Origin: Candidatus Eiseniibacteriota bacterium | Lineage (GTDB): Bacteria; Eisenbacteria; RBG-16-71-46 | Assembly (NCBI GenBank): GCA_963717505.1 | Contig: OY970342.1 | Location: 3,040,001-3,104,000 of the forward strand | DNA: 64,000 nt | Reading direction: 5' to 3' | Part shown: positions 61,319-63,579 of the stretch, in pieces | Position numbering within the stretch: position 1 is the stretch's first letter | Layout: every line of letters starts with the position of its first letter | Program-made: the position numbers and the translations under genes | The notes under the pieces: generated by a model | What the model was told of the DNA's origin: nothing | Databases searched by the model: none | What the model saw: only the letters and a program-made list of their open reading frames with translations

Positions 61319-62038
61319 ATGAGCAGCCCACGGGCACTCGACACCGCCCAAGTGGAAGAAGCCATTCGTCGACACGCCCGAGGTGTCGAAAGCGTGCGGG
61401 TCCAGGCCGAAGGCGAGGATCTGCGCGAGATCCATGTGATGCCGCGGCCGGGGTGGACTGCCAAGCAGATCGTGCGCGATATCAAGACCATCGTGCTCAA
61501 CAAGTTCGACAAGGCGATCGACCATCGCATCGTTTCGGTCGCCGACGCACCCGACGAGTGGCCCGGCGGTGAGGCCGAGCCGGCACCCAAACGCGGAGCG
61601 CCGCGGTCCGTCGACGCGCGTGTCCGATTCGGCAGCGTCAACGTCTATGTCACCGGCCGTCGAGCGCAGGCGCAGGTCGAAGTGCGCTGGAAGGGCGTGC
61701 CGCGCATGGGCAGCGCCTCCGGCTGGAGCAGCCGCGACGAAGCCCTCGATCTGGTGGTTCAGGCCACGCTTGCCACGATCCAGGAATTCCTGGACGATGG
61801 CATCGCCTTCGGGTTCGAGGGCGTCGAGGTGGTTCGAGTCGGACGCCGGGAGGTCGTGGTGGTCGGACTCGAGCTGTTGGCGTATCGTGCCCACAAGAGT
61901 CTGGTGGGTGCGTGCACGGTGGAAGCCGACGTGCAACAGGCGGCAGTGCTCGCCACCTTGTCGGCACTGAATCGTGTGCTGGGCGGACTGCCGACCCGCG
62001 AACCCACCGAATACGTTTTGAGGCCGACATCGTCCTGA
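61319..62038 (+). CDS. Uncharacterised 239-aa protein (N-terminal alpha/beta domain + duplicated beta-beta-beta-alpha region resembling the LeuA regulatory domain)
   Basis: GGAGGAG SD; 'EIHV...KQIVRDI...IDHRIVSVA'; repeats ending 'VVQATLATIQEFL' and 'AAVLATLSALNRVL'. Confidence 0.8.
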   Translation: MSSPRALDTAQVEEAIRRHARGVESVRVQAEGEDLREIHVMPRPGWTAKQIVRDIKTIVLNKFDKAIDHRIVSVADAPDEWPGGEAEPAPKRGAPRSVDARVRFGSVNVYVTGRRAQAQVEVRWKGVPRMGSASGWSSRDEALDLVVQATLATIQEFLDDGIAFGFEGVEVVRVGRREVVVVGLELLAYRAHKSLVGACTVEADVQQAAVLATLSALNRVLGGLPTREPTEYVLRPTSS

Positions 62039-62099
62039 GGGAGGACAGCGAAGCGAAACTGGAGCGAAGCGTACCCACCTGAGGCAGCTCAAAAAAAAA

Positions 62100-62132
62100 C
62101 ACTCCGTCGGGGCAACCCGATCAAAGGAGGTG
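62100..62132. other. Hairpin (GCAA tetraloop) that can mask the micro-ORF SD; reads as a terminator-like hairpin + T9 on the minus strand
   Basis: TCGGG-GCAA-CCCGA (62107-62120), extended by CACTCC (62100-62105) pairing with GGAG-G-TG (62126-62132); A9 tract at 62091-62099. Confidence 0.55.
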
Positions 62133-62138
62133 GGTCGC

Positions 62139-62165
62139 GTGAAGATGGGTAAGGCTGGGTGGTAG
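62139..62165 (+). CDS. Putative micropeptide MKMGKAGW (8 aa)
   Basis: AAAGGAGGTG (62123-62132); GTG 8 nt after GGAGG; GTG AAG ATG GGT AAG GCT GGG TGG TAG. Confidence 0.6.
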   Translation: MKMGKAGW

Positions 62166-62256
62166 ATTTCGCCCGCAGTACGTAGAACCTCCTGATTGTT
62201 CGGTGTCGGTCTCACCCAACGTGGCAATCCCGCAACCTGTCCCCCGGGTGACAACC

Positions 62257-63579
62257 ATGGTCGACGTCCCGCCGTTCGCCCACCCTCGGTGGTTCCGGGT
62301 CTACTTCTTCGCCGCACTGCTGACCGCACTCGCCGCCTTCGTCGCGACGCCGTCCGGTGCCCAGCCGCCACTCCTGATTCTCGGGGTCGTGGTCGGCCTG
62401 ATGCTGGCGCTCGAGCTGACGCCGATCGAGCTGCCCGGCGGCGGTTACGCGACCACCAGCGCGGTCGTCGACCTGCCGGCCATCGTGCTGATCGGACCGT
62501 TCTGGACCGCGGTGCTCGACGTGATCGCGATCGGCGTCGCCCAGGGGCTGGTGCGCCGGCGCGCGCCGATCAAGGTGATCCACAATGTCGCGGTCGCGAT
62601 CCTCACCGACCTGGCCGCCGGCTGGGCCTGGCACGCGGCCGGTGGCGCGACTTCGGGACGAGCGTTCGCCGAATGGATGGCGCCGTTGTTCGCGATGGGC
62701 TTCGCCTACTTCGCGGTCAACTCGACGCTGGCCGCGGTCGCGGTCGGCCTGACCCAGGGGCCGAACCCACTGCGGGTGTGGGAGCGGAGTTTCCTCGACG
62801 GCATCATCCACCACGTCTCGTTCCTGGCGCTCGGCATCCTGGCGACCATGACCTACCGGGTTGCGGGGGGGTGGGGACTCCTGTTCTTCGCGATTCCGTT
62901 CATGGTCGCGCGCCATTCGTTCCGGCTCTACGTGGAGATCCGCTCCGACTTGAAGGACTTCGTGCGCGCGCTCTCGGAGGTGCTCGAAGAGGTCGATCCC
63001 TACACCCGGCACCACTCGGCGCGAGTCTCCCAGTACGCCGTGCGCCTGTCCCGCGAACTGGGGCTCCCGGAACGCGAAGTCGAAGAGGTCGAATACGCGG
63101 CCCTGGTCCACGACCTGGGCAAGATCGGGCCGCAGCATCAGCACATCCTCCAGAAACCGGGCAGCCTGTCGCACGAGGAGCAGCGCACGCTGCGCTCGCA
63201 CCCGGCCGCTGGCGCCGAGATCGTGCGCAAGGTGCGGGCCCTCCGGCGGCCGGCCGAGATCATTCGCGCCCACCACGAGCGTCCGGACGGACAGGGCTAC
63301 CCGTTCGGACTGCAATCCGACGACGTTCCGATCGGCGCTCGCATCCTCAACGTTGCCGACGCGTTCGACGCGATGACCTCGGACCGGCCGTATCGCCGCG
63401 CATTGTCGGTGCGGGCGGCACTCGACGAACTCAGACGCGGCGCCGGCACCCAGTTCGACGATCAGGTGGTCGCCGCGCTGGTGCGGATGAACGAGCAGCA
63501 GCGCTTCCCGCTGTTGCCGAGTCCGAGCAGCGAGGACCTGCAGCAGCTGCGCATTCGCCCCCTGCGTCTGCGCGCGTGA
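62257..63579 (+). CDS. Membrane-bound HD-GYP cyclic-dinucleotide phosphodiesterase with multi-TM (MASE-like) sensor
   Basis: About 7 TM helices, then DPYT..HS.RV, HDLGKIG, HP..GAEI, HHER.DGQGYP, ADAFDAMTSDRPYR, GTQFD. Start could be GTG 62203. Confidence 0.92.
   Translation: MVDVPPFAHPRWFRVYFFAALLTALAAFVATPSGAQPPLLILGVVVGLMLALELTPIELPGGGYATTSAVVDLPAIVLIGPFWTAVLDVIAIGVAQGLVRRRAPIKVIHNVAVAILTDLAAGWAWHAAGGATSGRAFAEWMAPLFAMGFAYFAVNSTLAAVAVGLTQGPNPLRVWERSFLDGIIHHVSFLALGILATMTYRVAGGWGLLFFAIPFMVARHSFRLYVEIRSDLKDFVRALSEVLEEVDPYTRHHSARVSQYAVRLSRELGLPEREVEEVEYAALVHDLGKIGPQHQHILQKPGSLSHEEQRTLRSHPAAGAEIVRKVRALRRPAEIIRAHHERPDGQGYPFGLQSDDVPIGARILNVADAFDAMTSDRPYRRALSVRAALDELRRGAGTQFDDQVVAALVRMNEQQRFPLLPSPSSEDLQQLRIRPLRLRA

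Follow-up and report, generated by a model that had tools for sequence, protein, structure and literature searches.

A conserved G[KR]xGW mini-gene enclosed in a structured RNA upstream of an HD-GYP gene in Candidatus Eisenbacteria

Can an open reading frame (ORF) of only eight codons be a gene, and if so, what might it do? The question is raised by a locus in the genome of Candidatus Eiseniibacteriota bacterium (assembly GCA_963717505.1, contig OY970342.1), from a poorly known group of uncultured bacteria of soil, where a short ORF (sORF) for the peptide MKMGKAGW stands behind a strong Shine-Dalgarno (SD) sequence, between the gene of a 239-amino-acid (aa) protein and the gene of a membrane HD-GYP protein. 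The stretch analysed, here called the window, comprises 64,000 nucleotides (nt; contig positions 3,040,001 to 3,104,000), and coordinates are positions within it. A preliminary description had been made from the letters of the window, and its sequence, coordinates, 8-nt spacing from GGAGG and peptide were confirmed when the DNA was re-read. The elements in question are as follows.

62123..62132, + strand: SD sequence AAAGGAGGTG; its GGAGG ends at 62130, with an 8-nt spacer to GTG 62139
62139..62165, + strand: sORF with start GTG, peptide MKMGKAGW and stop TAG at 62163-62165; a shortened member of the G[KR]xGW family

After GTG 62139 the codons read AAG ATG GGT AAG GCT GGG TGG, followed by TAG. 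As had been claimed, no longer ORF was found behind AAAGGAGGTG in the ORF list, and the HD-GYP gene does begin well downstream: its earliest possible start is GTG 62203, and orthologues place it at ATG 62257, 92 nt past the sORF stop. Two features absent from that description emerged from comparison with other genomes, namely that the sORF is a shortened version within a family of longer ORFs and that a conserved RNA structure surrounds it. Comparison establishes the 8-codon ORF as a real, conserved mini-gene, the smallest family member seen.

An eight-codon member of a conserved mini-gene family

Within the source genome (4.16 Mb, 67.7% G+C), AAGGAGG occurs 302 times on both strands. An ORF of at least 60 aa follows at 88 of these sites and an ORF of fewer than 60 aa at 21, 13 of them below 30 aa, and 193 sites have no start 4-10 nt behind them; the full 10-mer AAAGGAGGTG occurs three times. 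A strong SD followed by a tiny ORF is thus not rare enough within one genome to carry meaning, and since the single-genome pattern is not beyond chance, the weight for the sORF was drawn from comparison with other genomes. The preliminary description had deduced translation from the perfect SD. Translation is well supported by the comparative data given below; the argument from the SD did not stand, as two thirds of the AAGGAGG sites lack a start and a perfect SD alone does not imply translation. Another of these sites, C1:2321629 (+), outside the window, precedes an ORF of 30 codons whose hydrophobic product (MSDLLILGFIALLAVSLAVLVRVCDSVRTK) is a candidate for a small membrane protein.

BLAST of the intergenic DNA against 40 relatives returned short weak matches only, because the nearest genomes belong to other genera, and synteny was used instead. 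All but one of the comparison genomes are draft metagenome bins; families and genera are coded, kin among the genomes are not independent, and the tallies of BLAST relatives, of the strict pattern and of the 239-aa gene include the unpublished genome G026. The 239-aa protein was found in 57 of 61 sampled genomes of the family, and in all 29 relatives' loci fetched an HD-GYP orthologue lies 245-419 nt behind its gene. The sORF was present in 30/30 syntenic loci, window included, with GGAGGTG, a start codon (GTG or ATG) 8-9 nt behind GGAGG, and the end [KR]-[AG]-[GS]-W-stop. Across all orthologous family loci read, a strong SD is followed 7-10 nt later by the start of a short ORF ending [KR]-x-G-W-stop; MDLILELVTFFGRAGW and MELLLDLIELLGKAGW are typical products, and most ORFs have 16 codons.

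A strict DNA pattern built on these features had a single match in each of 55 of the 88 other family genomes; it had none in 117 genomes of other families in the class, and the reversed control gave one match. The sORF was nevertheless carried by all 12 pattern-negative family genomes whose locus was fetched, which the pattern had missed because the stop was TGA, the ORF was longer or the SD spacing differed, and by two more such genomes (L026 and L042), so that it was seen in 69 of the 88 and was missing from none of the 69 read. The exclusion of TGA as a stop proved wrong, as 3 of the 12 extra loci end in TGA. Over 71 family loci the last five residues are GKAGW (37), GRAGW (19), TKAGW (4), SKAGW (3), TRAGW (2) and AKGGW (2), with GRASW, GKGGW, GKSGW and GKVGW once each, and in 71/71 this end abuts the stop codon.

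Aligned to these loci, the ORF of the window equals the family ORF minus about eight internal codons, with SD, start, G-K-A-G-W and stop in register. A scan of metagenomes for close relatives yielded one locus only, the contig L229, which has the same 8 codons with a single synonymous change (GGT to GGA), a 239-aa protein 81% identical to that of the window and a leader 91% identical over its whole length. When the pattern was scanned globally (one genome per species), at least 24 stretches among the 119 matches listed encode family-like peptides; 17 of these bear the titles Candidatus Eisenbacteria (13), uncultured bacterium (3) and Candidatus Saccharimonadaceae (1). The other matches listed come from other phyla and were out of frame (76) or in frame but unrelated (19). 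With respect to the Saccharimonadaceae title, contig L127 has an sORF identical to that of a family genome (MDEILLDLINFFGKAGW) and its 239-aa protein bears the same title; the contig is probably mis-binned or mis-titled.

The signature of coding selection was read from 56 unique family ORFs. Their lengths are 16 codons (39 ORFs), 17 (9), 18 (2) and 19 (2), with one each of 25, 13, 12 and 8, and every one of the at least seven length changes is a multiple of three. Starts are GTG in 31 and ATG in 25; stops are TAA in 43, TAG in 10 and TGA in 3, and in 1325 long ORFs of this genome with high G+C at third codon positions TAA is the rarest stop (TGA 753, TAG 492, TAA 80). Among the 39 ORFs of 16 codons, nucleotide entropy is 0.89, 0.33 and 1.18 at codon positions 1, 2 and 3. 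The preliminary description had proposed comparing synonymous with non-synonymous changes in orthologues; in this set the pooled ratio of non-synonymous to synonymous polymorphism (pN/pS) is 0.54, and 0.28 over the last five codons. The Trp and the position of the stop never vary. The general layout is a hydrophobic or acidic N-terminal stretch, with its hydrophobic pattern also conserved, then G-[KR]-x-G-W, nearly always just before the stop; the 8-, 12- and 13-codon forms retain exactly SD, start, G[KR]AGW and stop. The features expected in general of a translated, conserved sORF were thus all found: conserved start, stop and frame, codon periodicity, and insertions and deletions (indels) only in multiples of three.

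In the class as a whole the 239-aa gene marks the locus, being present in 150 of 206 genomes. In a wider survey of the DNA behind this gene in 17 genomes of 11 other families, 15 had an HD-GYP orthologue downstream and 14 an sORF with a strong SD and a similar end. Versions in eight further families are longer, at 20-50 codons (for example MIHYIIEGSGLVGMILVALFRAGW, MIALWIAAIYVVLNGGRAGW, MKWGWLALIVSIALRVLPGKAGW, MFAMIGWFNFIIALLGGRAGW and MLIFAIIYSEIADILGGFNSTDGRNGW), and automatic pipelines annotate them as 'hypothetical protein'. Weaker or variant ends (...NSRGHW, ...QSNWW) also occur, and two lineages extend past the Trp (...YRAGWGPGGP-stop and ...GKSGWM-stop). Both neighbours were present and no sORF was found in family f4; neither HD-GYP orthologue nor sORF was found in f7 and f10, where the absence of HD-GYP was confirmed in one genome each; and in f18, where the HD-GYP orthologue lies directly behind pfkB, neither the 239-aa gene nor the sORF was found. 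Overall the sORF occurs in 9 of 13 families examined, only where both neighbours occur, and as a single copy per genome.

In one genus (g29), all four genomes read (L212, L216, L240 and L241) carry three GK[AG]GW units in the ORF, as in MMNFLMLLEELAGEILDLNDGKGGWDLQPTDGKGGWDRTDGKAGW. This layout, DGKGGWD ... DGKGGWD ... GKAGW-stop in 43-50 aa, is common in metagenomes (proteins P0121-P0216), where one member has two repeats. A profile search at E<1e-3 recovered 65 proteins from metagenomes, 27-50 aa long, and no Pfam domain or functional name is attached to any of them. When 29 metagenome homologues were aligned, G-K-x-G-W was invariant in the first and last repeats and nearly so in the middle one, the linkers were variable and every protein ended in GKAGW. 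Invariant repeats between variable linkers point to a constraint on the peptide away from the stop codon. For 11 longer members (20-49 aa), Pfam and NCBIfam gave no family at E<=10, the 8- and 16-aa forms falling below the 20-aa limit of the tool, and a protein language-model atlas gave no usable match to a 45-aa form.

The RNA domain around the sORF

An alignment of 52 non-identical family sequences, to which the pair counts below refer, establishes that the sORF is enclosed in an RNA domain with a covarying closing helix and a conserved pairing partner for the SD region. The domain measures about 200-250 nt in the family and is closed by the long-range helix P0. Its parts in the window are these.

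62019..62032, + strand: 5' arm of P0 (UGAGGCCGACAUCG), paired with 62201-62214 in the minimum-free-energy (MFE) fold of 62017-62218
62201..62214, + strand: 3' arm of P0 (CGGUGUCGGUCUCA), covarying partner of 62019-62032
62039..62044, + strand: 5' strand of helix P0b, GGGAGG just after the upstream stop, paired with CCUCC 62188-62192
62188..62192, + strand: 3' strand of P0b, CCUCC, from the family alignment and the MFE fold of 62017-62218
62047..62055, + strand: invariant motif 1, AGCGAAGCG, in which GCG.AGCG is invariant in 52/52
62063..62071, + strand: invariant motif 2, AGCGAAGCG, invariant, partner of motif 1 in RNAalifold
62073..62079, + strand: anti-SD ACCCACC, forming helix P1 with GGUGGGU 62129-62135 of the SD region

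P0, which RNAalifold recovered, is paired in 94.2% of its alignment cells, and 6 of its 12 pairs change on both sides; at one of them the sequences have AU (20), GC (17), GU (12) and UA (3), with none unpaired. Such G-U pairs in the helices argue for RNA rather than a symmetry of the DNA. P0b (GGAG with CUCC in the family) is paired in 85.2% of cells with some two-sided change in 4/4 pairs, P1 (anti-SD CCCACC with GGUGGG) in 77%, and the base of a further helix, P2, in 85.9%. For a structure written by hand from P0, P0b, P1 and the P2 base, 87.3% of cells hold standard pairs, versus 38-47% when the 3' partners were slid by 1-3 columns as a control. Helices with compensatory changes, the general mark of a structured cis RNA, are therefore present. 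The preliminary description had held that loss of the start or stop with the RNA structure kept would count against the ORF; in the family the start, the stop and the RNA helices are all conserved.

In most lineages the 5' arm of P0 falls in the last codons (..L-R-P-T..) of the 239-aa gene, and in one group of genera it falls in an intergenic region that is longer; the 3' arm lies 40-80 nt past the sORF stop in the family and about 35 nt past it in the window. Outside the ORF the invariant blocks are the two GCG.AGCG copies, the SD, where AGGAGGTG is without variation in 52/52, and the CGG of a downstream block GYCGGUCUC, which matches, as its reverse complement, the stretch GAGACCGRC some 100-110 nt ahead of the SD. 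In the RNAalifold structure the two GCG.AGCG motifs pair with each other, enclosing a purine-rich internal loop, and show no covariation because both are invariant.

The 202-nt domain of the window folds at -84.5 kcal/mol (z -4.04), with 0/200 shuffles as stable; a fold of 62030-62270, without the 5' arm of P0, gave a non-significant z of -0.31. Partition-function folding of the 52 domains predicted the GGAGG core to be mostly paired (median unpaired probability 0.15), with its partner upstream in 47 and downstream in L029 and L031. At 62091-62099 the window has nine A in place of the usual P2 hairpin of the family, where L229 has five; a UCGGG-GCAA-CCCGA hairpin follows the A run at 62107-62120, and no part of the domain is less conserved than the P2 region.

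A separate observation concerns L225, a locus of family f4. At about nt 30-70 of this locus as oriented, where the sORF domain is absent, the 239-aa gene ends in a simple hairpin of GAGCCG and CGGCUC around 8 nt that hold the stop codon, with CGGUUUCGG behind it; read by eye, the arms of P0 appear there side by side. The resemblance of this hairpin to adjoining P0 arms suggests that the sORF domain sits as an insert in the loop of an ancestral gene-end hairpin.

Searches for known elements gave the following. Rfam release 15 had no family match in 61700-62600; a hit to mir-1994 at 62033-62084 (-) was set aside as a chance match (E 1.3, 17.7 bits against a gathering score of 47), falling on the stretch GGGAGG / GCGAAGCG / CCCACC. 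In the loci of seven relatives Rfam gave no match at E<=1. No tRNA or transfer-messenger RNA was found at the locus, and no promoter in 61800-62500. A terminator scan of 61800-62500 found one terminator-like site, at chance level and inside the HD-GYP ORF, and none at P0. The tail behind P0 is pyrimidine-rich (T 30% versus 19% overall), with a T-run of at least three in 14 of 51 sequences. Since this tail is only weakly U-rich, and the window has one T in 14 nt, it is doubtful that P0 would be read out as an intrinsic terminator at this locus.

Metatranscriptomes gave a weak hint that the domain occurs as an RNA of comparatively high abundance. A 324-nt contig, 100% identical to 61966-62289, was present in two soil metatranscriptome runs, perhaps one data set twice. 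It spans the RNA domain with about 50 nt to the left and 75 nt to the right, and in other runs DNA contigs extend beyond it on either side. The coding regions that flank it had no cover in the RNA runs, an absence that carries no weight in contig data.

Neighbouring genes and the possible role of the peptide

The order at the locus is a PfkB kinase gene, the gene of the 239-aa LeuA-regulatory-domain protein, the sORF, the HD-GYP gene and then purM. The genes that flank the sORF are these.

61319..62038, + strand: gene of the 239-aa protein; predicted ferredoxin-like N-terminal domain and C-terminal fold of a LeuA/citramalate-synthase regulatory domain
62257..63579, + strand: gene of the membrane HD-GYP protein; Pfam HD_5 at 2.5e-38, HHERPDGQGYP motif in the translation

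No Pfam or NCBIfam family was above cut-off for the 239-aa protein. In its structural model (mean predicted local distance difference test, pLDDT, 85.7) the C-terminal half has the fold of the amino-acid-binding regulatory domain of LeuA/citramalate synthase, as judged by Foldseek (3fig, E 8.8e-6) and by VIA-align over residues 100-222 (3f6g, Z 10.4, root-mean-square deviation, rmsd, 2.7, 108 residues aligned). The N-terminal 75 or so residues (3-79) take a common ferredoxin-like arrangement with Z <=8.9, which is not diagnostic; a double-stranded-RNA-binding domain, tried for this protein, was dropped, with weak Foldseek matches (E 3e-4 to 1e-2, rmsd >10) and only a ferredoxin-like arrangement in VIA-align. 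The protein is without a catalytic part, and its public names are 'hypothetical protein' save one UniRef name that mentions the LeuA allosteric domain. Kept beside the sORF and the HD-GYP gene across the class, it may be the sensor of their module.

The HD-GYP protein is a probable phosphodiesterase of cyclic di-guanosine monophosphate (c-di-GMP). In tblastn, orthologues align with the ATG 62257 product from residues 1-11 onwards in 23 of 29 loci and from residues 30-56 onwards in the other six, and the start was therefore set at this ATG and not at GTG 62203, the longest-ORF start, which falls within the 3' arm of P0. Ahead of ATG 62257 there is only a weak SD-like GGGTGA.

The explanation that we favour, at somewhat less than an even chance, is that a peptide product of the G[KR]xGW unit works with the HD-GYP (c-di-GMP) module. 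In the folded state the SD would be masked, from which we infer that the fold gates translation of the mini-gene. Once the SD is freed, a short peptide would be made in which the G[KR]xGW end is the selected unit, and the peptide itself, not merely its translation, would be the product acting together with the module. In the lineage of the window, an in-frame internal deletion would have removed the N-terminal helix and left M-K-M followed by GKAGW. A role at the level of the peptide is favoured by the conservation of the hydrophobic pattern at the N-terminus and, most strongly, by the motif standing three times, invariant, inside the ORF with variable linkers, which a stop-dependent mechanism does not explain. 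An unlikely elaboration is that G[KR]xGW functions as a free micro-peptide of the c-di-GMP module, produced in bulk from an RNA that is stable, gated by its fold and dual in function, and that it acts on neighbouring proteins, for instance as a ligand of the HD-GYP membrane domain or as a binder of c-di-GMP through its Lys/Arg and Trp. If so, the 8-mer of the window would come close to the smallest active unit, and forms with three repeats would be multivalent.

Several points weigh against a role of the peptide. Translation and peptide alike rest on sequence comparison. Two alternative frames are also open across the same span, in 30/56 and 42/56 family ORFs, so that openness alone shows nothing and the case rests on periodicity, on the placement of start and stop, and on the indels. 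The 91% overall identity of the L229 leader leaves little power for a synonymous versus non-synonymous test in the 8-codon lineage. The product of the window is without the hydrophobic N-terminal part kept by most members, and a free-peptide function would here depend on the final five residues, or it may have disappeared; the interchange of K and R in the motif speaks against a cross-link specific to Lys. Next to the sORF, no transporter, protease or modifying enzyme was found. With respect to expression, the metatranscriptome contigs show neither strand, ends nor level, carry-over of DNA is possible, and the two runs are almost equal in size, possibly one data set filed twice.

The strongest competitor, which we regard as a substantial possibility although improbable on balance, is a cis-acting leader, in which ribosomes on the sORF would remodel P0 and P1 and so set HD-GYP output by read-through or translation, the free peptide having no role; in one variant, the stalling leader already suggested in the preliminary description from the terminal Trp codon, the ribosome perhaps pauses at G[KR]xGW-stop through the nascent chain. 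The position of the sORF suits this well, as it lies on the same strand, always directly upstream of the HD-GYP orthologue, and was never seen where that orthologue is missing (f7, f10). So do the conserved anti-SD that masks the SD, the strong preference for TAA as stop, the concentration of constraint in the last five codons and the stop, and the fact that forms cut down to 8, 12 and 13 codons still have exactly the SD, the start, G[KR]AGW and the stop, which fits stalling; excerpts of the report on PepNL, a 14-residue peptide that blocks termination (PMC11890864), offer a precedent. The motif, however, stands three times inside the ORF in one genus with each copy invariant, and two lineages run past the Trp (RAGWGPGGP-stop, GKSGWM-stop), both of which speak against a mechanism that depends purely on the stop codon. 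Conservation extends to the hydrophobic pattern of the N-terminus, in the window about 35 nt separate the sORF stop from the 3' arm of P0 and 92 nt separate it from the HD-GYP start, distances too great for a ribosome at the stop to act by direct occlusion, and the weak U tail behind P0 makes a terminator read-out doubtful. A peptide-level role and a cis leader are not mutually exclusive.

If only the structured RNA were conserved and the ORF were an untranslated by-product, the strong covarying structure, the mostly paired SD core and the often open alternative frames would be accounted for; we consider this very unlikely, because RNA pairing would not be expected to give a three-base periodicity in which the second codon position is the most constrained, synonymous changes at the third position of the G, A and K/R codons, indels only in multiples of three or an invariant placement of start and stop. 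An element like a type I toxin, a small hydrophobic peptide whose mRNA is silenced by a long-range 5'-3' helix and a masked SD, would share the closing helix, the SD masking and the hydrophobic 16-27-aa products of most lineages. It is highly improbable at a locus that is strictly single-copy, vertically inherited and fixed in synteny across the class, the more so as many members are acidic and amphipathic, not membrane-spanning, and MKMGKAGW is not hydrophobic. A chance ORF behind a chance SD-like motif gains something from the 13 other AAGGAGG sites of the genome that precede ORFs below 30 aa; it is contradicted by all comparative results, from synteny and the strict pattern to the other families and the coding signature, and is hardly credible.

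Comparison with known systems and meaning of the module

Stop-codon-stalling leaders of the TnaC/PepNL kind are likewise very short leader ORFs with conserved residues beside the stop. PepNL of E. coli, for which 14 residues suffice, ends in Ile-Asp and depends on UGA and release factor 2 (RF2), according to the excerpted text of PMC11890864. As far as PepNL is described in that text, the present family has no sequence likeness to it, and its stops are mostly UAA or UAG; unlike TnaC and PepNL, it also has G[KR]xGW internally and in triplicate in one genus. In nascent-chain arrest of the SecM and RAPP type, Pro is required as the incoming residue. Like these, the family has a [KR]-A-G tripeptide near the C-terminal end of a small regulatory ORF, the arrest motifs being R-A-G-P in SecM and R-A-P-P in RAPP, as given in excerpts of PMC10951299, PMC10951233 and PMC10987492. 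Unlike them, it has Trp and not Pro next, with no Pro in the last five residues of the 71 family loci, Lys in place of Arg in about two thirds of members, and an HD-GYP gene downstream instead of Sec/YidC machinery.

Ribosome-mediated Trp attenuators of the trpL type need tandem Trp codons and trp genes downstream. The locus was rejected as such an attenuator, having one Trp codon and, downstream, the HD-GYP gene and then purM, and no canonical terminator/antiterminator pair was identified at the sORF locus. The trp attenuator of Sinorhizobium meliloti yields a small RNA, rnTrpL, and a 14-aa leader peptide, peTrpL, that is active in trans (excerpts of PMC7298713 and PMC7968998). To the extent that those excerpts describe it, the likeness is in a tiny Trp-containing leader ORF on a structured RNA, possibly with roles in cis and in trans; the difference is that our family has a single Trp after a conserved G[KR]xG and no trp genes downstream.

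In hok-type mRNAs of type I toxins, a long-range 5'-3' helix closes the mRNA and an upstream complementary stretch masks the SD; type I toxin-antitoxin systems combine a toxic, hydrophobic peptide with an antisense RNA and are distributed patchily and in multiple copies. The domain described here shares this closed, SD-masked architecture, and differs in its single copy, fixed synteny and class-wide vertical inheritance, with a window peptide that is not hydrophobic. Multi-core precursors of ribosomally synthesized and post-translationally modified peptides (RiPPs), for example those of streptide-type Lys-Trp peptides, combine an N-terminal leader with a short core containing Lys and Trp. The longer members resemble them in a conserved N-terminal 'leader' and one to three invariant cores, the last ending the protein. 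Unlike RiPP loci, however, this one has no radical-SAM enzyme, YcaO, lanthionine synthetase or other known maturation enzyme, protease or exporter adjoining, and unlike in streptide-type peptides Lys and Arg interchange within the family of the window. Among the top-ranked literature matches, none described a leader ORF of an HD-GYP gene or any small ORF or RNA of Eisenbacteria.

The locus thus represents a conserved leader or mini-gene on a structured RNA that no curated family matches. ORFs of 8-19 codons are invisible to gene callers; here coding selection on such ORFs was brought out by comparison across a class of an uncultured candidate phylum. Should the element act in cis, G[KR]xGW would be a new signal read in the nascent chain, and one for which a length of 8 residues is enough. 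Should it act in trans, few functional peptides encoded by a gene would be shorter, and c-di-GMP signalling would gain a new input. In either case the locus is a defined RNA-plus-peptide module in about 250 nt of DNA, which can be tested without culturing the organism.

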